This document shows positions 10,245 through 59,695 of a DNA stretch of 64,000 nucleotides, piece by piece (position 1 is the stretch's first letter; the number at the start of each line of letters is the position of its first letter). This stretch comes from Alphaproteobacteria bacterium. GTDB lineage: Bacteria > Pseudomonadota > Alphaproteobacteria > UBA828. The position numbers were made by a program, and so were the translations under genes. The stretch is taken from contig CAXXMU010000001.1 of assembly GCA_963667785.2 (NCBI GenBank), positions 640,001 through 704,000 of the forward strand, read 5' to 3'. Below the pieces are notes generated by a model, which was not told where the DNA came from, made no database searches, and saw only the letters and a list, made by a program, of their open reading frames with translations.

Positions 10245-10949
10245 ATGCCCGAGATACCGGACTGGCAGCGCTTCCTGAGCGAAGACGACAGGACCACCAT
10301 CGAGAGCGGCCGCTGGGCGCGGCGCGTCGGCTTCGGCGCCCGACCCGCCGTCATCCTCATCGACGTGCAGAACTACATGGTGGGGGAGGAGGGCAATCAC
10401 GACCTCGCCGCCTACCCCTATAGCTGCGCTACCGGCTGGGCTGCGGTACGGCAGACCGCGCGCATCGTCGACACGGCGCGGGCCGCGCGCGCGCCGGTGA
10501 TCTACACCCGCTTCGCCATCGACCGCACGGTGGGCGATGCCGGGCTCTTCGACGCCAAGATCGGCGCGGAGGCGGGCGAGAACGTCTATTTCGAGGGCAC
10601 CCACGGCGGCGAGATCGTGGCGGACGTGGCGCCCCGGCCGGAAGACCTGGTCTTCACCAAGAAGAAGCCGAGCTCGTTCCACGGTACGCCTCTCCTGCCC
10701 TATCTGATCGACCGCAGCATCGATACGCTGATCGTCACCGGCGGCGCCACCTGCAACTGCGTGCGCGCGACGGTCTTCGACGCCTTCTCCTACAACTATC
10801 GCACCATCGTACCGGCGGATGCGGTGTTCGACCGCCTGCCGATCTCCCACGAGATCAACCTGTTCGACATGAACCGCTGCTCGGCGGATGTGACGGACAC
10901 GGACGCCGTGCTCGCCTACCTCGGCGACATGGCCCAGCGCGCGGCCTAA
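10245..10949 (+). CDS. Isochorismatase-family cysteine hydrolase (N-carbamoylsarcosine/maleamate amidohydrolase-like)
   Basis: D-K-C triad: LIDVQ, KKKPSSF, TGGATCNCVRAT. Confidence 0.85.
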   Translation: MPEIPDWQRFLSEDDRTTIESGRWARRVGFGARPAVILIDVQNYMVGEEGNHDLAAYPYSCATGWAAVRQTARIVDTARAARAPVIYTRFAIDRTVGDAGLFDAKIGAEAGENVYFEGTHGGEIVADVAPRPEDLVFTKKKPSSFHGTPLLPYLIDRSIDTLIVTGGATCNCVRATVFDAFSYNYRTIVPADAVFDRLPISHEINLFDMNRCSADVTDTDAVLAYLGDMAQRAA

Positions 10950-11127
10950 ACTCAGACTCACGTATCCCTCAGTCGCCGGGCGCTCGCTCCGCGAGCTTGG
11001 CTTTCGCGCCATTCGGCGCGCGGCGCGGTTGCGCCGTCCGGGCCTGCGGCCCGGTCCTCCCACAATCTCACTCCCTGCGTTGACCGGCCGCTGATGCCGG
11101 CGACGGCGCCACCTGCTATAGTGGGTG

Positions 11128-11225
11128 CGGGAGGTCGGCGGCGGACGGCTTTCTCGCCAACCCGGTCAGGTCCGGAAGGAAGCAGCCGTAACGAGCTTCA
11201 AGCCGGGTCGTCCGCCGGCCTCCTG
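11128..11225 (+). ncRNA. ffs: Signal recognition particle RNA (4.5S)
   Basis: Domain IV motif GTCAGGTCCGGAAGGAAGCAGC at about 11165-11186, complementary ends, -10 TATAGT at 11117, upstream of dnaX. Confidence 0.93.
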
Positions 11226-11294
11226 CCGCCAAGCCGACGCACCGCCCGCCACGCGCCCGCTGCGCACCGCGAGCCCGAGGACGACAATGCTCCC

Positions 11295-13058
11295 ATGAGC
11301 GAGGACGCCGCCGCCTATCGCGTGCTCGCGCGCAAGTACCGGCCGGCGAGCTTTGCCGGCCTGATCGGCCAGGACGCCCTGGTGCGCACGCTGAGCAACG
11401 CGATCGCGATGGACCGCCTGGCGCACGCCTGGCTGCTGACGGGCGTGCGCGGGGTGGGCAAGACCTCCACGGCAAGGATCATCGCGCGCGCGCTCAACTG
11501 CATCGGCGCGGACGGCGCCGGCGGCCCGACGCCCGAACCCTGCGGGACCTGCGATCACTGCGTCTCCATCGCCGAGGACCGCCACGTCGACGTGATCGAG
11601 ATGGACGCGGCATCGCGCACCGGCATCGACGACGTGCGCGAGCTGATCGAGAGCGTGCGCTACCGCCCGGTATCGGCGCGCTACAAGGTCTACATTATCG
11701 ACGAAGTGCACATGCTCTCGAAGCAGGCCTTCAATGCGCTGCTCAAGACGCTCGAGGAGCCGCCGCCCCACGTCAAGTTCGTGTTCGCGACCACCGAGGT
11801 CCGGCGCCTGCCGGTGACGGTGCTCTCCCGCTGCCAGCGCTTCGACCTGCGCCGGGTCGACATGGAGACGCTGGTCGCGCATTTCGCCGGGATCGCCGAG
11901 GCCGAGGGGGTCGAGGTGGAGCCGGCGGCGCTCGCGCTCATCGCCCGGGCCGCCGATGGCTCGGTGCGGGACGGGCTTTCCGTGCTCGATCAGGCGATGG
12001 CCCACGAGGGCACGCGCGTCGCCGAGGAGGCGGTGCGTGCCATGCTGGGGCTCGCCGACCGGACTCGGCTCTTCGACCTCTTCGACATGCTGATGCGGGG
12101 CGCGATCAAGGACGCGCTCGACTGCTTCGCGGAGCTCCACGACGCAGGCGCCGAGCCCCAGGCCCTGCTGCAGGACCTGCTGGAGCTCTGCCACTGGCTG
12201 ACTCGGCTGAAGCTGGTGCCCACTGCTGCGGACGACCCCGCGGTGCCGGAGGCGGAGCGCACGCGTGGGCGCGCCATGGCGGATGCGCTGGCGGTGCCGT
12301 CGCTCACCCAGACCTGGCAGATGCTGCTCAAGGGGCTGGAGGAGGTGGGCCAGGCCGCGCGGCCGGCGCTCGCGGCGGAGATGACCCTGGTGCGCATCGC
12401 CTATGCCGCCGACCTGCCGAGCCCGGCGGACGCGCTCCGCGCCCTCGGCGCGGGAGGTGCGCAGCCGAGGGCCGACGGCGCGGCAGAGACGGCGGCGGCG
12501 CCCGCGTCCACCCCCGTCGATGTGCCTCGCGGGGGCGCTGCGGCGGCCGATTCCGCTGCAGCGGAGCCGGTACCGGCTGCGACGCCGTCGCCGGCGACCG
12601 CTCCGGCCCCAGCGCCGACTCCTGCGCCGACATCCGCTCCGACCGCCGAGGCGGCCCCCCGGCCGCGCCCCGAGTCCTTGCGCGCGATCGCCGCGCTCGC
12701 CGAGGAGCGGCGCGAGCCGATCCTGAGCGCGTGGCTCAGGACCGAGGTGCGCCCGGTCCGCGTGACCGCCGGCACCGTCGAGATCAACTGCGTGCGCGCG
12801 CCCGACGGCAGGATGCTCGACCTGCTCCGGGACAGGCTCGAGGAATGGACGGGCGAGCGTTGGATGATCGCGCTGACGGACTCGGGCGGCGAGCCCACGC
12901 TTGACGAGCAGGCCCACGCCGCGCAAGAGGCAGCCGACAGGGCGGCGGCGGATCATCCGCTCGTGCGCCAGGTGCTCGATGCCTTCCCCGGCGCGCGCGT
13001 GCGCACCGTTCACCGGCCGGTGCCGGACAGCGGAAACGACGGAGACCCTTCCCCATGA
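11295..13058 (+). CDS. dnaX: DNA polymerase III subunit gamma/tau
   Basis: YRVLARKYRP, GVRGVGKTS, IIDEVHML, SRC motif, Pro/Ala linker. Confidence 0.97.
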   Translation: MSEDAAAYRVLARKYRPASFAGLIGQDALVRTLSNAIAMDRLAHAWLLTGVRGVGKTSTARIIARALNCIGADGAGGPTPEPCGTCDHCVSIAEDRHVDVIEMDAASRTGIDDVRELIESVRYRPVSARYKVYIIDEVHMLSKQAFNALLKTLEEPPPHVKFVFATTEVRRLPVTVLSRCQRFDLRRVDMETLVAHFAGIAEAEGVEVEPAALALIARAADGSVRDGLSVLDQAMAHEGTRVAEEAVRAMLGLADRTRLFDLFDMLMRGAIKDALDCFAELHDAGAEPQALLQDLLELCHWLTRLKLVPTAADDPAVPEAERTRGRAMADALAVPSLTQTWQMLLKGLEEVGQAARPALAAEMTLVRIAYAADLPSPADALRALGAGGAQPRADGAAETAAAPASTPVDVPRGGAAAADSAAAEPVPAATPSPATAPAPAPTPAPTSAPTAEAAPRPRPESLRAIAALAEERREPILSAWLRTEVRPVRVTAGTVEINCVRAPDGRMLDLLRDRLEEWTGERWMIALTDSGGEPTLDEQAHAAQEAADRAAADHPLVRQVLDAFPGARVRTVHRPVPDSGNDGDPSP

Positions 13059-53521: not shown

Positions 53522-54145
53522 ATGGGAACGCTAGCAGAGGCGGCGGCGAGCCTCAAACGGGCGGCGGGCAGCACCCTGCCCGCGCTCGTGCTCATGACCG
53601 ACGAGGCGCGTCTGCCCGATCCCCTCCCGGCGGCAGGCGCGCTGCCGGCGGGCAGCGCCGTCATCCTGCGCCACTATGGCGCGCCCGGCCGGGCCGCGCT
53701 CGCCCGCCGCCTCGCCGCGATCGCGCGCCGCCGCGGGCTGCTGCTGCTGGTGGGCGAGGACCCGGCGCTGGCGCGGCGCGTCGGCGCGGCCGGGGTTCAC
53801 CTGCCGGAACGCGCGCTCCGGCGCGCTCGTGCCGTGCGCTGGCGCGGGGGATGGCTGGTCACGGCCGCCGCCCATTCGCACGCCAGCCTGCATGCTGCCG
53901 CCGCCTGCGGTGCCGATGCCGTGCTGCTCTCGCCCGTTCTTGCCACGGCGAGCCACCCGGATGTCCGCCCCCTCGGTCCCCGCCGCTTCGCCGCGCTGGC
54001 GCGGACGAGCCCGGTGCCGGTCTATGCGCTGGGTGGCATCGACGGCACGCACGCGCGCATCCTGCGGGGCAGCGGCGCCGTCGGCATCGCCGGCATCGGC
54101 GGGCTCATCCCGGAGCGCCCGGATCCTCCGTCGACTCCTCCCTGA
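53522..54145 (+). CDS. Thiamine phosphate synthase/TenI-like protein
   Basis: GVHLPE, AAHS, LSPVLATASHP, VYALGGI. Confidence 0.82.
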   Translation: MGTLAEAAASLKRAAGSTLPALVLMTDEARLPDPLPAAGALPAGSAVILRHYGAPGRAALARRLAAIARRRGLLLLVGEDPALARRVGAAGVHLPERALRRARAVRWRGGWLVTAAAHSHASLHAAAACGADAVLLSPVLATASHPDVRPLGPRRFAALARTSPVPVYALGGIDGTHARILRGSGAVGIAGIGGLIPERPDPPSTPP

Positions 54146-56255
54146 GCTCCGCAAGGGTGAAGTGCCGCTCCACGTAGTCGACCAACGCCCTGAGCGACTG
54201 CTCGACCGGGCGGTCCCCGGTATCGACCGTGAGCTCTGGCACTTCCGGCGCTTCGTAGGGGGCCGAGACGCCGGTGAAGTCCGCGATCTCGCCGGCGCGC
54301 GCCCGCCGGTAGAGGCCCCTGGGATCGCGCTGCTCGCAGACGGCGAGCGGTGCGCGGACGTAGACCTCGTGGAAGCCCTTCGGGCTCGAGCGCTCGGCCG
54401 CCGCCCGCGCCCGCGCGCGGTCCGAGCGGTAGGGCGAGATGAAGGCGGTGACCACGATGAAGCCGGCATCGGCGAAGAGCGCCGCCACCTCGCCGACGCG
54501 CCGGATGTTCTCGGCCCGGTCCTCGGGCGAGAAGCCGAGGGTGGCGTTGAGCCCGTGGCGGACATTGTCGCCGTCGAGCGCGTAGACTTGGTAGCCCTTG
54601 CGGAAGAGATGCTCCTCGGCGGCGATCGCGAGCGTCGACTTGCCGGCGCCCGAGAGGCCGGTGAGCCAGATCACCCCACCCGCATGGCGGTTGCGCCGGG
54701 CGCGGGCGCCGCGGCTGACGCCGTGGTCGATGATGGAGACGTTGCTCGCGCGGCCGGTGATGAGGGAACGCTGGTCCGGATAGCCTTCCATGCTGACGAG
54801 CCCGCCGCCGGCGATCCCGTTCCCGTCGACGAGGACGAAGCGCCCGGTGCGCGGGTTGGCCGTGTGCTCGTCGAGCGCCAGCATCGCGCCGGAGCGCAGC
54901 ACGGCCTCGGCGATGCGACCGTGCCCGATCTCCGCCTGCGCCTCGCCTTCTTGTGGCCCGTCCGGCCCGCTCGGATCGATGACGCGGTCGATGGACTGCA
55001 CCTCGACGGGGTGGGCGGCGGTGCAGAGCTGGAGGGTGCAGCGCCGGCCGGGTCTGAGCGGCGTGCGCCCGAGCCAGAAGAGCCGCGCGCGGAAGACGTC
55101 GGTCTCGATCGGCGGCCTCGCCTCGTGGCTCACCGTCTCGCCCCGCTCGACCGGGAGCCGCTGGTCCAGCGTGAGGCCGACCGAGCGCCCGGCGGTGGCG
55201 TGCGCGAGCGGTGCCGGCGCGTTCCACGTCTCGATGCTGACGACGCGCGCGGTTCTGTTGGACGGCGAGAAGAGCACCCGGTCGCCCGCGCTTACCCGGC
55301 CGCTCTCGATGCGGCCCGCGACGATGCGCCGCTCGTCGAACGCGTAGACCCCTTGCACGGACATGCGGAAGGGTAGCGCCTCACGCTCCTCCGTCGGCTC
55401 GCTGGCAGAAAGCGCGCCGAGCAGACGCCCGACCGGGTCCCCTGCCTCGCGGTCCGCGTCCCGGCCGGCGCCCGCGGCTCTGCCGGTCATCTCCAGCTCG
55501 GCGACGATCTCCTCCACCGTGGCGGCATCGCTCTCCACCGATTGGGCGACGTCCTGGTCGCCGACGGAGCGGTGGCGCCTGCGGTCCTGCGCGAAATAGA
55601 GGGGCACCACCGGGATGCCCTCCCGCGCTGTGTAGCGCCAGACGTCGATCTCCGACCAGCGCAGCAGGGGGTGGACGCGCACATGCCCGCCGGCGGGCAC
55701 GGTGCCGTTGTAGTGGTCCCAGAACTCGGGCGGTTGGTAGCGGTAGGCCTGCGCGCCGTCGCCGCCGCGCGGGCTGAACACGCGCTCGTTCGCGCCCGTG
55801 CCCTCCTCGTCGCGTCGGTTGCCGGCGAGAAGGCCGGTGAACCCCTCCCGTGCGATCACCGCCTCGAGGCCGGCGGCCACGCGCGCCGCAGACCGCGCCG
55901 CCGGCGGCAGCGAGGGGTCGCTGGCGGAGTCCGGCGGGCAGGGGGCGGGGACGAGCCGCAGATCCCATGCCGCGGCCTGGTGATCGCGGAACGCGTACGT
56001 CTCCGCGAACGCGCGCCCGGTATCCACGTGGACCACGGGGAACGGCACATGACCGAAGAAGGCCTTGCGGCAGAGCCAGAGCATGACGGTGGCGTCCGCG
56101 TCGAGCGACCAGAGCAGCGCCGGCCGGTCCAGCATCGCGTGGGCCTCGCGGATGATGTGGATGCTCTCGGATTCAAGGGCATCGAGATGCGTGTCCGCCG
56201 TGGTATCGGCCACAGGAGTCGCTGCCGGCCCCGTCCGGTCCGCGGGCGCGCTCAT
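54105..56255 (-). CDS. cysC: Fusion: degenerate CysD/NodP + CysN domains II-III (no GTPase domain) + intact adenylyl-sulfate kinase CysC
   Basis: N-terminal LDALESESIHIIRE, RRDE..ERVFSPR, QPPEFW, VRVHPLLRWSE (CysD); then PFRMSVQGVY..AGRIESG and TGRFVLVD (CysN C-domains); then WLTGLSGAGKST, LDGDNVRHGL, FISPY, FTGVSAPYE (CysC). Confidence 0.88.
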   Translation of the reverse strand: MSAPADRTGPAATPVADTTADTHLDALESESIHIIREAHAMLDRPALLWSLDADATVMLWLCRKAFFGHVPFPVVHVDTGRAFAETYAFRDHQAAAWDLRLVPAPCPPDSASDPSLPPAARSAARVAAGLEAVIAREGFTGLLAGNRRDEEGTGANERVFSPRGGDGAQAYRYQPPEFWDHYNGTVPAGGHVRVHPLLRWSEIDVWRYTAREGIPVVPLYFAQDRRRHRSVGDQDVAQSVESDAATVEEIVAELEMTGRAAGAGRDADREAGDPVGRLLGALSASEPTEEREALPFRMSVQGVYAFDERRIVAGRIESGRVSAGDRVLFSPSNRTARVVSIETWNAPAPLAHATAGRSVGLTLDQRLPVERGETVSHEARPPIETDVFRARLFWLGRTPLRPGRRCTLQLCTAAHPVEVQSIDRVIDPSGPDGPQEGEAQAEIGHGRIAEAVLRSGAMLALDEHTANPRTGRFVLVDGNGIAGGGLVSMEGYPDQRSLITGRASNVSIIDHGVSRGARARRNRHAGGVIWLTGLSGAGKSTLAIAAEEHLFRKGYQVYALDGDNVRHGLNATLGFSPEDRAENIRRVGEVAALFADAGFIVVTAFISPYRSDRARARAAAERSSPKGFHEVYVRAPLAVCEQRDPRGLYRRARAGEIADFTGVSAPYEAPEVPELTVDTGDRPVEQSLRALVDYVERHFTLAELREESTEDPGAPG

Positions 56256-57136
56256 CGGCCGGCTCCGGCGCCTTCCGCGGCCTCGACCTCGCCCGCGTCC
56301 TCGTAGCCTGCCGGCACGTAGCCGAAACGCGCCATCTGGGTGTGGTGGTGCTCGACCACCCGGCGCACCTGGGCATCGCTGAGGGCCTCGCGCCAGCCGC
56401 CCGCCTTGCCGGAGCGGAAGAAGCGGTCCTGCACCGGGGTGCGCTCGACGAAGCCGGTGCGGTCCTCTTGCGCGCGCAGGGCGCGGAACGAGGAGTGACG
56501 CATCGCGCGCTCCAGGCGCTCGCGCGGGGGCTTCAGCCCGAGGAAGGCGGCGACGGCGCGGAAGGTCGGCCCCGGGCGGCTGCTCATGTCCTCGAAACGC
56601 ATGACGTGGAGCTTCTGGTGCGCCCGGGCCGTCCAGCTCGCGACATGAGTGGACCAGTCCTCGTGATGCTCCGGCACGAGCGTCTCCAACGCGGGCGTCG
56701 CGAAGCCCGATGTCTCCATGAGCGCGATCACGTCGTCCAGCGGCTGCCCCAGGTGATGGGCGTAGGAGACCACCACGTCCAGCGGGTTGCGCACCACGTA
56801 GATCGCGCCGGCGGTGAGATTCTGGCTGATCATGGGCACGCCGGCGACCTCGATCAGCGCGTTGTGGGTCTTGACCATGACGGTGTCGCGCGCGCTCTCG
56901 CTGATGAGCGCGTGCACCCTGGGCCTGAGCTGCGCCAGATCATCCCGGCTGAGCTCCGCCGGCGGGCGCGGGTCGAGGCGCCTGAACCAGTGCGCCTGGC
57001 TGTCGCCCGCCGTGAGCTCCGACATCCGGTTGATGTCGAAGGGCTCGCGCGGGTTGCGCAATAGGTTGTGCAGGAAGGCGCGCAGCCAGGTGTTGCCCGA
57101 CTTGGGGTAGGAGGCGAGCCACAGGATGCCGCTCAT
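56252..57136 (-). CDS. PAPS-dependent sulfotransferase (Sulfotransfer_1-type)
   Basis: 5'-PSB SYPKSGNTW, KTH, 3'-PB VRNPLDVVVS, FFRSGKAGGW. Confidence 0.92.
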   Translation of the reverse strand: MSGILWLASYPKSGNTWLRAFLHNLLRNPREPFDINRMSELTAGDSQAHWFRRLDPRPPAELSRDDLAQLRPRVHALISESARDTVMVKTHNALIEVAGVPMISQNLTAGAIYVVRNPLDVVVSYAHHLGQPLDDVIALMETSGFATPALETLVPEHHEDWSTHVASWTARAHQKLHVMRFEDMSSRPGPTFRAVAAFLGLKPPRERLERAMRHSSFRALRAQEDRTGFVERTPVQDRFFRSGKAGGWREALSDAQVRRVVEHHHTQMARFGYVPAGYEDAGEVEAAEGAGAGR

Positions 57137-57175: not shown

Positions 57176-58393
57176 CTAGAGGGGCGGTGCCGCGCCTTCG
57201 AGCGGGATGATCTCCACCGCGGACCCGCGCGGCAGCGCCGGCGCGTGCGGCGGCCGGACGACGAGGCACTGCGCCTTCACCAGAAGCGACAGCATCGAGC
57301 TGTCCTGCCGGGCGAAGGGGGTGGCCACCAGCGCGCCGCTCCCGTCGCGCCCGAGCGTTGCGCGCAGATAGTCCTGGCGCTCGTCGTTCTCCGCCACGTC
57401 CGCGCCGAGGCTCGCCTGCTGCGCGGCCGGCGCGGCGCCGTCGCGCTCCCCGAGCATCGCCGCGATCGCAGGCCTCAGGAAGACCAGCGCGCAGACGAGC
57501 GAGGAGACCGGGTTGCCCGGCAGGCCGAGCAGCCGGGTGCCGCCCACGGAGCCGAACATCAGCGGCTTGCCGGGCCGCATGGCGATCTTCCAGAAGTCGA
57601 GTGCGAGCCCTTCGTCCGCGAGCGCGTCGCGGATCAGGTCGTGCTCGCCCACCGAGGCGCCGCCGGTGGTGACCAGGAGGTCCGCGCCGCGCGCGCCGGC
57701 GGCATGGTCGACGAGGGAGCGGGCGTCGTCCCGTGCGATGCCGAGGTCCAGCGCCTCGCCGCCGCAGCCCTGCACCACGGCCCGGAGCGCGTGCGTGTTC
57801 GAGCTCACGATCTGGTTCTCGCCGCGCGGCTCGCCCGGCATGACGATCTCGTCGCCGGTGGCGAGCAGCGCGATGCGGGGCTTGCGCCTGACCGAGAGCC
57901 ACGGCTGGTCCATGGCGGCGGCGAGCCCGATGGCGCGGGCGTCGAGCCGGGTGCCTGCCGCGACTCCCACCTCGCCGGCGCTGAAATCGAGCCCGGCGGG
58001 GCGGATGTAGCGGCCCTCCGCGGCGCTCGCGTGCACCGTGATCGCATCGCCGTCCGCGCTCGTGTTCTCCTGGATCACGATGGTGTCGGCGCCGTCCGGC
58101 ACCGGCGCGCCGGTGAAGATACGCACCGCTTCGCCGGGGCCGAGGCTGCCCTCGAAGCGCGCGCCGGCCGGCACGCTGCCGATCTGCCTGAGGGTCGCCG
58201 GCACGCGCGCGACGTCGGCGGCGCGTGCCGCATAACCGTCCATCGCCGAGACGGCGAAGGGCGGCTGCGTGAGGCGCGCGATTACGTCCTCCGCCAGCAC
58301 GCGGCCGTGGGCCTCCGCCAGCGGCACGGTCTCCGCCGGCAGCGGGGAGAAGGCGGCGGTGATGCGGGCGACCGCCTCTGCGACCGGGATCAT
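57176..58393 (-). CDS. moeA: Molybdopterin molybdotransferase MoeA
   Basis: SAMDGYA, IFTGAPVP, TGDE, TGGASVG, RPGKP, LPGNP. Confidence 0.96.
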   Translation of the reverse strand: MIPVAEAVARITAAFSPLPAETVPLAEAHGRVLAEDVIARLTQPPFAVSAMDGYAARAADVARVPATLRQIGSVPAGARFEGSLGPGEAVRIFTGAPVPDGADTIVIQENTSADGDAITVHASAAEGRYIRPAGLDFSAGEVGVAAGTRLDARAIGLAAAMDQPWLSVRRKPRIALLATGDEIVMPGEPRGENQIVSSNTHALRAVVQGCGGEALDLGIARDDARSLVDHAAGARGADLLVTTGGASVGEHDLIRDALADEGLALDFWKIAMRPGKPLMFGSVGGTRLLGLPGNPVSSLVCALVFLRPAIAAMLGERDGAAPAAQQASLGADVAENDERQDYLRATLGRDGSGALVATPFARQDSSMLSLLVKAQCLVVRPPHAPALPRGSAVEIIPLEGAAPPL

Positions 58394-58396
58394 CGC

Positions 58397-58873
58397 CTAG
58401 GGCGCCCTGAACTCGCCCGACCTGCCGCCCTCCTTGTGGGTGAGCCGCACGTCCGTGATGCGCATGCCGCGATCGGCGGCCTTGCACATGTCGTAGACGG
58501 TCAGCGCCGCGACGCTGGCTGCGGTCAGCGCCTCCATCTCGACGCCGGTGCGCGCCGTGATCCGGCAGCTCGCCTCGATGTCGACGGCGCCCGCCGCCTC
58601 GTCGCAGCCAAGCGTCACGTCGATGGCGGTGAGCGCCAGCGGATGACAGAGCGGGATCAGGTCGGCGGTGCGCTTGGCCGCCATGATGCCGGCGAGCCGG
58701 GCAACCCCCAGCACGTCGCCCTTGGCGACGCCGCCCTCCGCGATCAGGCGCACGGTCTCGGGCTTCATCAGCACGCGCGCCCGCGCCGTCGCCCGGCGCT
58801 CGGTCACCTCCTTGTCGCTCACGTCCACCATGCGCGCCTTGCCGTCCGCATCGATGTGGGTCAGCCGTGCCAT
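58397..58873 (-). CDS. moaC: Cyclic pyranopterin monophosphate synthase MoaC
   Basis: [28 protein letters not shown]. Confidence 0.97.
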
Positions 58874-58876
58874 GGC

Positions 58877-59695
58877 TCAGCCCTCCGCCGCCCGGGCGCC
58901 CGGCTCGGTCGCCAGCAGCGCCGCCGTCGCCGCCGCCACGTCGGCCTGGCGCATCAGCGATTCGCCCACCAGGAAGCGGCGGACGCCGAGCGCCGTCATG
59001 CGCGCGAGATCGGCGGGCGTGTGGAGCCCGCTCTCGCAGACGATCGGCGGGCCGTCCGCCGCCAGCGGCACGAGGCGCTCGGTGGTCGCGAGATCGACAG
59101 CGAGGGTCTTGAGGTTGCGGTTGTTGATGCCGAGCAGCGAGGCGTCGAGTGCGAGTGCGCGGGCAAGCTCCGGCTCGTCATGGACCTCGACCAGCGTGTC
59201 CATGCCGAGCGCCGCTGCCGCCGCCGCGAGCTCGGCCGCCTGGCCGTCGCCGAGGGCGGCCATGATGAGCAGGATGCAGTCCGCGCCGAGCGCGCGCGCT
59301 TCGATCACCTGATAGGGGTCGAGCATGAAGTCCTTGCGCAGGACGGGCAGCGGCACCGCCGCGCGCGCTTCCTCCAGGAACCGGTCCTCGCCCTGGAAAT
59401 AGGGCTCGTCGGTCAGCACCGAGAGGCAGGCCGCGCCGCCGGCTGCATAGGCGCGCGCCAGCACCGCAGGCTCGAAGTCGGCGCGAATCAGGCCCTTGCT
59501 CGGCGAGGCCTTCTTGAGCTCGGCGATGAGCGCCGGCCGGCCGGCCCCGGCCACCGCATCCAGCGCCCGGGCGAAGCCGCGCGGCGCCGGTGCGGCGTGC
59601 GCCTGCTCGGCGAGCGCCGCCTCGGGCACCGCCTGCTTGCGGGCGGCGACGTGGCGCCGCTTGTCGTCGCAGATGCGGGCGAGCACGTCGCTCAT
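58877..59695 (-). CDS. trpC: Indole-3-glycerol phosphate synthase
   Basis: [33 protein letters not shown]. Confidence 0.97.

Follow-up and report, generated by a model that had tools for sequence, protein, structure and literature searches.

What can still be catalyzed by a protein in which the sulfate-activating subunit CysD, domains II and III of its partner CysN and the adenosine 5'-phosphosulfate (APS) kinase CysC are joined in one chain, and from which the GTPase (G) domain of CysN is missing? This question is raised by a reverse-strand gene in the window analyzed here, a stretch of 64,000 nucleotides (positions 640,001 to 704,000 of contig CAXXMU010000001.1, assembly GCA_963667785.2, genome G000 in this work) from an alphaproteobacterium of the order UBA828. 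We consider it likely that the gene arose by an in-frame deletion and that it encodes a dedicated APS kinase fed by a separate Sat-type ATP sulfurylase, with a dead and drifting CysD leader that has no new role. The C-terminal APS kinase is probably the only working part of the fusion protein. A sequence-only reading had described the same architecture and had interpreted it as a selected pseudo-enzyme scaffold that might dock or channel 3'-phosphoadenosine 5'-phosphosulfate (PAPS) to the adjacent sulfotransferase; its observation was confirmed and its interpretation was partly supported.

Anatomy and spread of the fused protein

The gene is a single uninterrupted open reading frame (ORF) of 716 residues, located exactly where it had been reported. 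Pfam divided its product into PAPS_reduct (residues 45-234), GTP_EFTU_D2 (310-375), GTP-eEF1A_C (388-487) and APS_kinase (526-678) matches, with no GTP_EFTU (PF00009) match anywhere in the protein. The GTP_EFTU_D2 (PF03144) match scored 26.2 bits, below its cut-off of 30.3, and the domain II/III family PF22594 was found above its cut-off, with 46.5 bits. Among the NCBIfam profiles, the CysN/CysC profile PRK05506 was matched at positions 224-628 of 632 only (331.3 bits versus a cut-off of 715), its first ~220 positions, which correspond to the G domain, having no counterpart in the protein, and the CysN profile TIGR02034 reached 91 versus 336.1. The loss of the entire G domain, which had been proposed from the translation, is thus borne out by the profile matches.

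The CysD profile PRK05253 was matched at positions 4-214 of 301 with 256.2 bits (cut-off 195), and two other CysD profiles remained below their cut-offs (TIGR02039, 204.6 versus 396.6; NF009214, 206.6 versus 413). Residues 22-226 align to the CysD chain 1zun_A (E 2.6e-51), with a weaker extension to residue 271; residues 282-487 align to residues 230-432 of the CysN chain 1zun_B, and for residues 502-695 the counterpart is the human PAPSS1 kinase domain (E 1.4e-59). The APS kinase families were all well above their cut-offs, given in parentheses: TIGR00455, 241.1 (138.7); PRK03846, 253.6 (163); PF01583, 219.6 (21.1). The kinase blocks GLSGAGKST, LDGDN and ISPY sit in columns that are invariant across 12 relatives and align to the PAPSS1 kinase, so that the CysC motifs are intact, as had been stated. 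In agreement with these matches, an AlphaFold2 model built on a 63-row alignment showed three confident domains, with a mean predicted local distance difference test score (pLDDT) of 78.8 and a predicted template modeling score (pTM) of 0.71, the stretches of low confidence being residues 149-155, 261-284 (pLDDT <50) and 492-511. When searched with Foldseek, parts of the model matched 1zun_A (template modeling score 0.86), 1zun_B and APS kinases.

As regards catalysis by the CysD module, the alignment to 1zun_A places SLDADA opposite 'sigkds' and GANER opposite 'raker', confirming the two motif changes that had been noticed before. With 23 CysD sequences as references (9 canonical, 14 from intact G-less forms), 64 invariant CysD positions were defined, of which the window protein keeps 58 and alters six (G52D, K53A, S55A, R154G, G225R and L231V). 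The first three of these replace the Gly, the Lys and the second Ser of the PP-loop, at positions invariant in all 23 references, and R154G lies in the RAKER motif. Because both motifs are destroyed, the CysD module appears to be catalytically dead. The CysD motifs are intact in most G-less relatives, and degeneracy is limited to a few. Thus, among 24 fusions examined (23 database clusters plus the shortened P0020), the PP-loop SxGKDS was kept in 14 and reads PCGKDS in P0004; the Lys alone was lost in five, as SLGTDS (P0003, P0009, P0010 and P0012) or SLGVDS (P0037), and a degenerate group of four that includes the window protein (P0001, P0002, P0011 and P0020) carries four different loops, SLDADA, SLDADS, SLDAES and SLGAVS. 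That each member of this group has a loop of its own is the pattern expected of drift.

The reality of the junction was checked with contigs of four public runs compared with positions 54105-57136, of which runs X2, X3 and X4 are labeled sponge metagenome; no RNA run was listed as containing the sequence. A 292-nucleotide contig of run X1 is identical over 55327-55618 and spans the junction, and a single 3777-nucleotide contig of run X3, whose study is not that of the best-matching run, covers 54105-57121 with 115 other letters and with insertions and deletions (indels) that are net in-frame. These contigs argue against a misassembly, which had been named as one of the outcomes that would undo the earlier reading. 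The architecture is not confined to one strain either, since a search of a 5.8-billion-protein database returned it (PF01507, PF22594 and PF01583 without PF00009) in 23 of the best 120 clusters, from 100% down to 51% identity. Around 30 further clusters among these 120, of 408-478 residues, have neither CysD nor the G domain, 18 of them being seen to start at a Met of the CysD tail. Among the best 150 representatives at 50% identity only P0037 spans CysD and the kinase, which indicates that the fused family is narrow. Many representatives of 540-585 residues in this set (e.g. P0125-P0134) align with the query only from its residue ~250-290 onward, which corresponds to ~130-170 in their own numbering; partial G domains in CysN-CysC (CysNC) proteins or truncation at contig edges may account for them.

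The intact-motif fusions P0003-P0016 are found only in ENA, outside the 49 genomes of the order. A FastTree tree left its inner forks mostly unresolved. No G-less locus was detected among the 133 loci holding CysD and domain-II parts; these came from a set of 160 CysD-relative loci, half of them fetched from metagenomes and half from GTDB genomes (80 each). Five GTDB loci considered as fusions (L149, L152, L159, L194 and L220) were discarded, all of them having G-domain-sized gaps; L194 reads as a canonical cysD, a stop codon and a cysNC in the same frame, and the other four share its pattern of high-scoring segment pairs. P0021 (902 residues), a 'triple fusion' with the G domain, was not used as an ancestor because an Arg/His-rich stretch replaces its CysD tail, probably through a frameshift from cysD into cysNC. 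A metagenome scan for the P0002 nucleotide sequence returned nothing above 61% identity. A full-text search of the literature, supplements aside, gave no description of a G-less CysN or of a CysD-CysN(II-III)-CysC architecture, in line with the statement that none was known; the portions of two papers at hand (PMC1780047 and PMC4342817) describe only CysD with CysN and the CysN-CysC fusion.

Table 1. Position of the fused gene, its modules and motifs, and the adjoining sulfotransferase gene in the window.
Feature	Position	Strand	Evidence
Whole ORF, 716 residues, ATG start: CysD-like module, CysN domains II-III and APS kinase	54105..56255	-	ORF list, Pfam, NCBIfam, AlphaFold2
CysD-like (PAPS_reduct fold) module, residues 19-272, apparently catalytically degenerate	55440..56201	-	PRK05253 256.2 bits; 1zun_A E 2.6e-51; pLDDT mostly 87-97
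PP-loop remnant SLDADA (SxGKDS in relatives and 1zun_A)	56091..56108	-	Translation, alignments
GTGANER, remnant of the GTRAKER motif	55782..55802	-	Translation, alignments; R154G at an invariant position
Deletion junction and linker: ...REAGDPVGRL, then last helix before CysN domain II (LGALSAS...), then LPFRMSVQ	55371..55472	-	Comparison with canonical cysD ends and cysN sequence before domain II
CysN domains II and III (EF-Tu/EF-1alpha beta barrels), no G domain	54786..55370	-	Pfam, NCBIfam, 1zun_B residues 230-432
APS kinase (CysC) domain, under strong purifying selection	54162..54746	-	PF01583 219.6 bits, TIGR00455 241.1 bits
Kinase P-loop GLSGAGKST	54633..54659	-	Translation, alignment
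PAPS-dependent sulfotransferase (Sulfotransfer_1), 294 residues, first gene of the cassette	56252..57136	-	ORF list, Pfam

The orthologous locus and the deletion junction

The origin of the fused gene is suggested by its neighborhood. The window genes were compared by tblastn with 13 regions fetched from other genomes of the order, nine of them canonical. In five of these nine the sulfotransferase gene, cysD and cysNC stand in this order beside tenI and yggS; the three genes are also present in G039 and G032, with no tenI or yggS match in the fetched stretch, and G045 and G047 have cysD-cysNC with tenI and yggS and no sulfotransferase match. A sulfotransferase gene therefore precedes cysD in seven of the nine canonical loci. 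This synteny indicates that an ancestral pair of the nodPQ type collapsed in place into one chain, as the sequence-only reading had supposed.

A full match to residues 1-716 was obtained in G000 only, i.e. in one genome out of 49 in the order. Three members of the genus (G032, G039 and G042) have the two separate genes of the canonical form, and five others (G025, G027, G029, G030 and G035) have a short form, whose only match begins at residue 260-268 and which gave none to CysD. These forms of ~445 residues are 72-78% identical to the window protein over the shared part. The sulfotransferase gene is retained directly upstream of the short form in G025 and G035, that is, in two of the four short-form loci compared, and it has been lost in G029 and G030, where moeA takes the upstream place. 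The genes trpC-moaC-moeA (57176-59695 in the window) immediately precede the cassette in the G-less genomes; no match to these three genes was found within the 18 kb fetched around the canonical loci of G042, G039 and G032 (L044-L046), which suggests that loss of the G domain and rearrangement of the upstream neighborhood took place in the same lineage. Loci L047 (G002, positions 11010-12685), L048 (G020, positions 10364-12076), L049 and L050 showed that some canonical operons have two tandem sulfotransferase paralogues upstream of cysD, 64% and 48-54% identical to that of the window, and that G015 and G011 have an extra sulfotransferase copy a few kb away.

The junction itself, which had been located at about 55400-55445, corresponds to residues 271-286. 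The CysD tail of the window protein reaches ...REAGDPVGRL, the canonical tail in the order being ...HEAEDSFERLRADGYM and the canonical C-terminal end ...MDHEAEDSFERLRADGYM, so that ~6 terminal CysD residues, GY among them, have been lost and ER has become GR. Hence the earlier statement that the C-terminal ER..R/GY motif was lacking holds for the final ~6 residues with GY and for the change of ER to GR, but not for the remainder of the tail, which is largely present. The join of ...ERL to L.AL..., here called type A, is common to the window protein, to most close fusions and to all short forms. The latter begin at a Met of the CysD tail and carry the same join of ...RL to L.AL, and those of G025, G029 and G030 share the N-terminal start TGAGCCATGGAT. 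Taken together, the tail-Met start, the common junction and the shared start indicate that the short forms descend from a fused ancestor.

Other fusions (P0014, P0015, P0009/10/12, P0016, P0007, P0023, P0024 and P0033) retain 15-50 residues of the C-terminal end of the G domain. Because junction types A and C each hold ancestral residues absent from the other, at least two primary deletions have to be assumed, and the remaining types could be the result of later erosion. An initial count of eight or more independent deletions was dropped, since most junction types are derivable from type C and only two primary events are required. Outside the junction P0008 shows 99-100% identity to P0015, but their joins belong to types A and D, neither of which can be derived from the other; either an exchange between alleles or a second, very recent deletion within one species would explain this difference. 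At both type A breakpoints of the canonical loci L044-L046, i.e. in the cysD 3' ends and in the cysN codons preceding domain II, there is a GC-rich microhomology (GAGCGCCT.CGCGC and GAGCCTGC.CG.CGCGC), which could favor recurrent deletion at this place.

APS supply and constraint on the CysD module

If the CysD module is dead, APS would have to come from another enzyme. The G000 assembly (98% complete, 14 contigs, 6.6% estimated contamination) contains a single APS_kinase match, which is the fusion protein, and a single Sat-type ATP sulfurylase gene (C5:147249-147974), located beside aprA (C5:148700-150496; L004, L053), whose product scored 966 bits versus a cut-off of 641.75. No other CysD and no CysH was found in this genome, nor was a CysN G domain, the best tblastn match having 36% identity. 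Of the two PAPS_reduct matches, the second is not CysH; it is an ORF of up to 517 residues (G000:C1:929174-929731; L002:784-2337) that matches only uncharacterized NCBIfam families with no more than 56 bits, versus cut-offs of at least 290, and similar weak matches were seen in G025 and G035. The cassette thus carries no means of its own to supply APS, the CysD motifs being dead, the GTPase absent and Sat encoded elsewhere in the genome. These findings support the proposal of the sequence-only reading of a dedicated APS kinase that draws its APS from Sat or from APS reductase.

A cysQ gene (282 bits versus a cut-off of 228.8) and a gene of the sulfite reductase type (NIR_SIR, C2:375629-376909) were also found in G000; sulfate may be assimilated through AprBA, or the sat/aprA pair may oxidize sulfite. 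Sulfotransfer_1 gave one strong and one weak match in the genome. The nearest solved relatives of the window sulfotransferase are SULT1A1, Teg12 and StaL, all of them small-molecule enzymes. Four sister genomes and the canonical G039 had no strong CysH-like match either, and the lack of CysH in the genomes of the genus that were checked suggests that the cassette serves sulfation rather than cysteine synthesis.

Within the genus, Sat was detected wherever the G domain is missing (six of six genomes); in the order, 14 of 25 genomes with canonical matches in two parts have it. The genomes being kin, these figures indicate consistency and are not a statistical test. Among the canonical members of the genus, G032 and G039 (both complete) have neither Sat nor aprA, and G042 has both. 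The Sat match of G042 is split (G042:C6:568009-568731, profile positions 3-178 and 170-210), which may reflect an insertion or a disrupted gene. A futile cycle with Sat and AprBA was considered as the force behind the loss and was weakened as a candidate by seven genomes of the order that keep a canonical cysDNC together with Sat and aprA. This coexistence indicates that Sat is permissive at most and not sufficient.

The ratio of nonsynonymous to synonymous substitution rates (omega) was estimated from Nei-Gojobori counts, with branch values obtained by a three-taxon method with bootstrap. On the G000 branch, omega was 0.57 (0.35-0.95) for CysD, 0.47 (0.29-0.70) for domains II-III and 0.30 (0.16-0.52) for CysC, and on the branch of the canonical G042 the values were 0.16 (0.08-0.32), 0.16 (0.09-0.29) and 0.18 (0.07-0.41), respectively. 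Canonical pairs gave a CysD omega of 0.21-0.29, and the G-less forms of G000, G025, G029 and G030 gave 0.10-0.20 for CysC and 0.35-0.52 for domains II-III. CysD is normally the most conserved part and is now the fastest-evolving one. Thus, at a CysC identity of 80-92% (P0017, P0020 and P0037 being left out for frameshifted or cut C-termini), the CysD parts were 86.5% identical in canonical pairs (n=3), 83.3% in intact G-less pairs (n=30) and ~71% in pairs with a degenerate member (n=43). P0001 and P0002, the closest pair of variants, differ at 31 of 272 CysD positions, at 9 of 200 in domains II-III and at 4 of 175 in CysC, and of 47 substitutions between them 9 fall in the N-terminal 22 residues and 10 in the CysD tail. 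The loss of catalytic residues without frameshifts had been taken as a sign of retained selection; the relaxation of CysD on the window branch speaks against this, and the maintenance of the frame is accounted for by polarity. Because the kinase would now be translated from the cysD start codon as part of one chain, the CysD part is kept open and folded, and a frameshift in it would kill the kinase as well.

Accounting for these data by deletion and drift, the in-frame deletion would have struck a conserved operon of sulfotransferase, cysD and cysNC, removing the last ~6 cysD codons, the spacer and the whole nodQ-type G domain. APS would then be provided by the Sat-type enzyme encoded beside aprA and converted by the kinase to PAPS for the translationally coupled sulfotransferase, with 3'-phosphoadenosine 5'-phosphate (PAP) presumably recycled by CysQ. 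The CysD module would drift, catalytically dead, under relaxed constraint, and CysN domains II-III would be a relaxed vestige. The loci would accordingly form a probable reductive series, with the window gene as an intermediate, that runs from the canonical operon through the G-less fusion, the dead CysD of the window and the deletion of the CysD body (~445 residues) to the deletion of the sulfotransferase gene.

Nevertheless, several observations weigh against a module that merely drifts. The changed invariant positions are concentrated in the motifs (4 of 7, versus 2 of 57 elsewhere; Fisher p = 0.0008, for motif windows picked after the data had been seen), so that the CysD fold still seems constrained and the losses cluster on the catalytic motifs. 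The confident AlphaFold2 model of CysD is what would be expected of a fold that is still needed. The interval of the CysD omega stays under 1, this value averaging in the time before inactivation, and the rough recent estimate (~0.9 for residues 173-293 and ~0.23 for residues 286-716) combines contig differences with protein differences, on small numbers and for a variant that is not exactly P0002. Where the CysD part of the X2/X3 variant has indels relative to the window, their net effect always leaves the frame intact, which suggests that this part is read, although polarity explains it equally. P0011 (loop SLDAES), with 70% CysD and 88% CysC identity, keeps a full-length module, which suggests that a dead module can persist for long.

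Some of these observations could also be read as signs of a selected pseudo-enzyme scaffold, in which CysD and domains II-III would hold APS, organize the kinase or dock the sulfotransferase for PAPS handover. The selective loss of catalytic positions with persistence of 55 of the 57 other invariant ones, the confidently predicted CysD fold and whole-chain pTM, the CysD omega below 1, the translational coupling with the sulfotransferase and the gene order conserved across the order would all fit such a role. We regard it as unlikely, since five sister species lack the CysD body, two of them (G025 and G035) keeping the sulfotransferase beside a kinase of ~445 residues; in G029 and G030 the kinase persists although the sulfotransferase is gone, and the CysD omega is 3-4 times that of the canonical sister. 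The sister species show that the CysD module is dispensable even when the sulfotransferase is kept, and docking or channeling to this enzyme is therefore not supported. The predicted complex of the sulfotransferase with residues 281-716, which scored 0.00 in both runs, speaks neither way. It is quite improbable that the CysD part is not translated at all and that the product begins at an internal start (e.g. Met256 or Met298), the upstream 770 bases being a pseudogene leader. The short forms of the sister species show that a product beginning in the CysD tail is viable, and substitutions accumulate quickly in the first 22 residues and in the CysD tail; but the Met of the short forms is absent in the window (GRD versus AMD), the first ATG overlaps the stop codon of the sulfotransferase gene (ATGA) with a GGAG 7 nucleotides before it, the indels of this stretch against the X2/X3 variant preserve the frame, no stop codon has arisen in it, and the great majority of the invariant CysD positions persist.

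Could the protein still be an ATP sulfurylase that works without GTP, its altered loop binding ATP in another way and the fused kinase pulling the reaction? The conservation of SxGKDS in 14 of the 24 G-less fusions suggests that the architecture may be active in some relatives, but for the window protein we give this very little credit, as the PP-loop Gly, Lys and Ser and the RAKER Arg are all replaced, the four degenerate members have four different loops and G000 has a separate Sat. A related proposal, that the intact-motif relatives are GTP-independent PAPS synthases whose kinase pulls APS formation, the activity having been lost later in the window lineage, is doubtful rather than implausible; the intact G-less CysD is about as conserved as the canonical one (83.3% versus 86.5%). 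Finally, an artefact of assembly or gene calling is hardly conceivable. The number of contigs and the estimated contamination of G000 could be taken to favor it, as could the frameshifted relatives in the database (P0017, P0020 and P0021), but the gene is covered from end to end, together with its neighbor, by a contig of a separate study, the architecture is common to 23 clusters, and G-less orthologues occupy the same locus in five other genomes, two of which are assemblies of 1-2 contigs. We thus retain the deletion product with a drifting CysD leader as the preferred explanation.

Relation to known sulfate-activating systems

The closest parallels are NodP/NodQ of Sinorhizobium and CysD/CysNC of Mycobacterium tuberculosis, in which the same three families occur in the same gene order, with the kinase behind CysN domains II-III. 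As with nodPQ and nodH (PMC1780047, in the part of that paper at hand), the cassette would serve a sulfotransferase and not cysteine synthesis. In contrast to both systems, CysD and CysN form one chain in the window protein, the whole G domain is gone, the ATP-binding motifs of CysD are destroyed and APS would be delivered by another enzyme. The parts of the model superpose on both chains of the CysD:CysN heterodimer of Pseudomonas syringae (PDB 1ZUN), residues 1-229 of chain B (the GTPase) having no counterpart. Sat-CysC fusions and PAPSS1/2 likewise unite a sulfurylase-type module and an APS kinase in one chain, and the genus itself has examples of Sat and CysC as neighbors or fused (G031, G033, G041 and G043). 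In the window protein, however, the sulfurylase-type module comes from the unrelated CysD (PP-loop) family and is apparently dead; it precedes the kinase, from which an EF-Tu-type spacer separates it. The ~445-residue proteins named 'adenylyl-sulfate kinase' (P0035 in G025, P0054) share the orthologous locus, the junction, domains II-III and the kinase; they have lost the CysD body and start at the CysD-tail Met, whereas the window protein keeps the CysD module.

The locus offers a stepwise natural example of a multi-subunit enzyme being dismantled once another enzyme covers its function, in which fusion by deletion, catalytic death, drift, removal of the dead module and disappearance of the client enzyme would all be represented at one orthologous locus within one genus. 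It also carries a warning for annotation, because proteins of this kind are labeled 'adenylyl-sulfate kinase' or 'bifunctional CysN/CysC' and would be miscounted as ATP sulfurylases in pathway reconstructions of uncultured, here sponge-metagenome-associated, alphaproteobacteria. The intact-motif relatives, in turn, raise the biochemical question of whether CysD can function without its GTPase.

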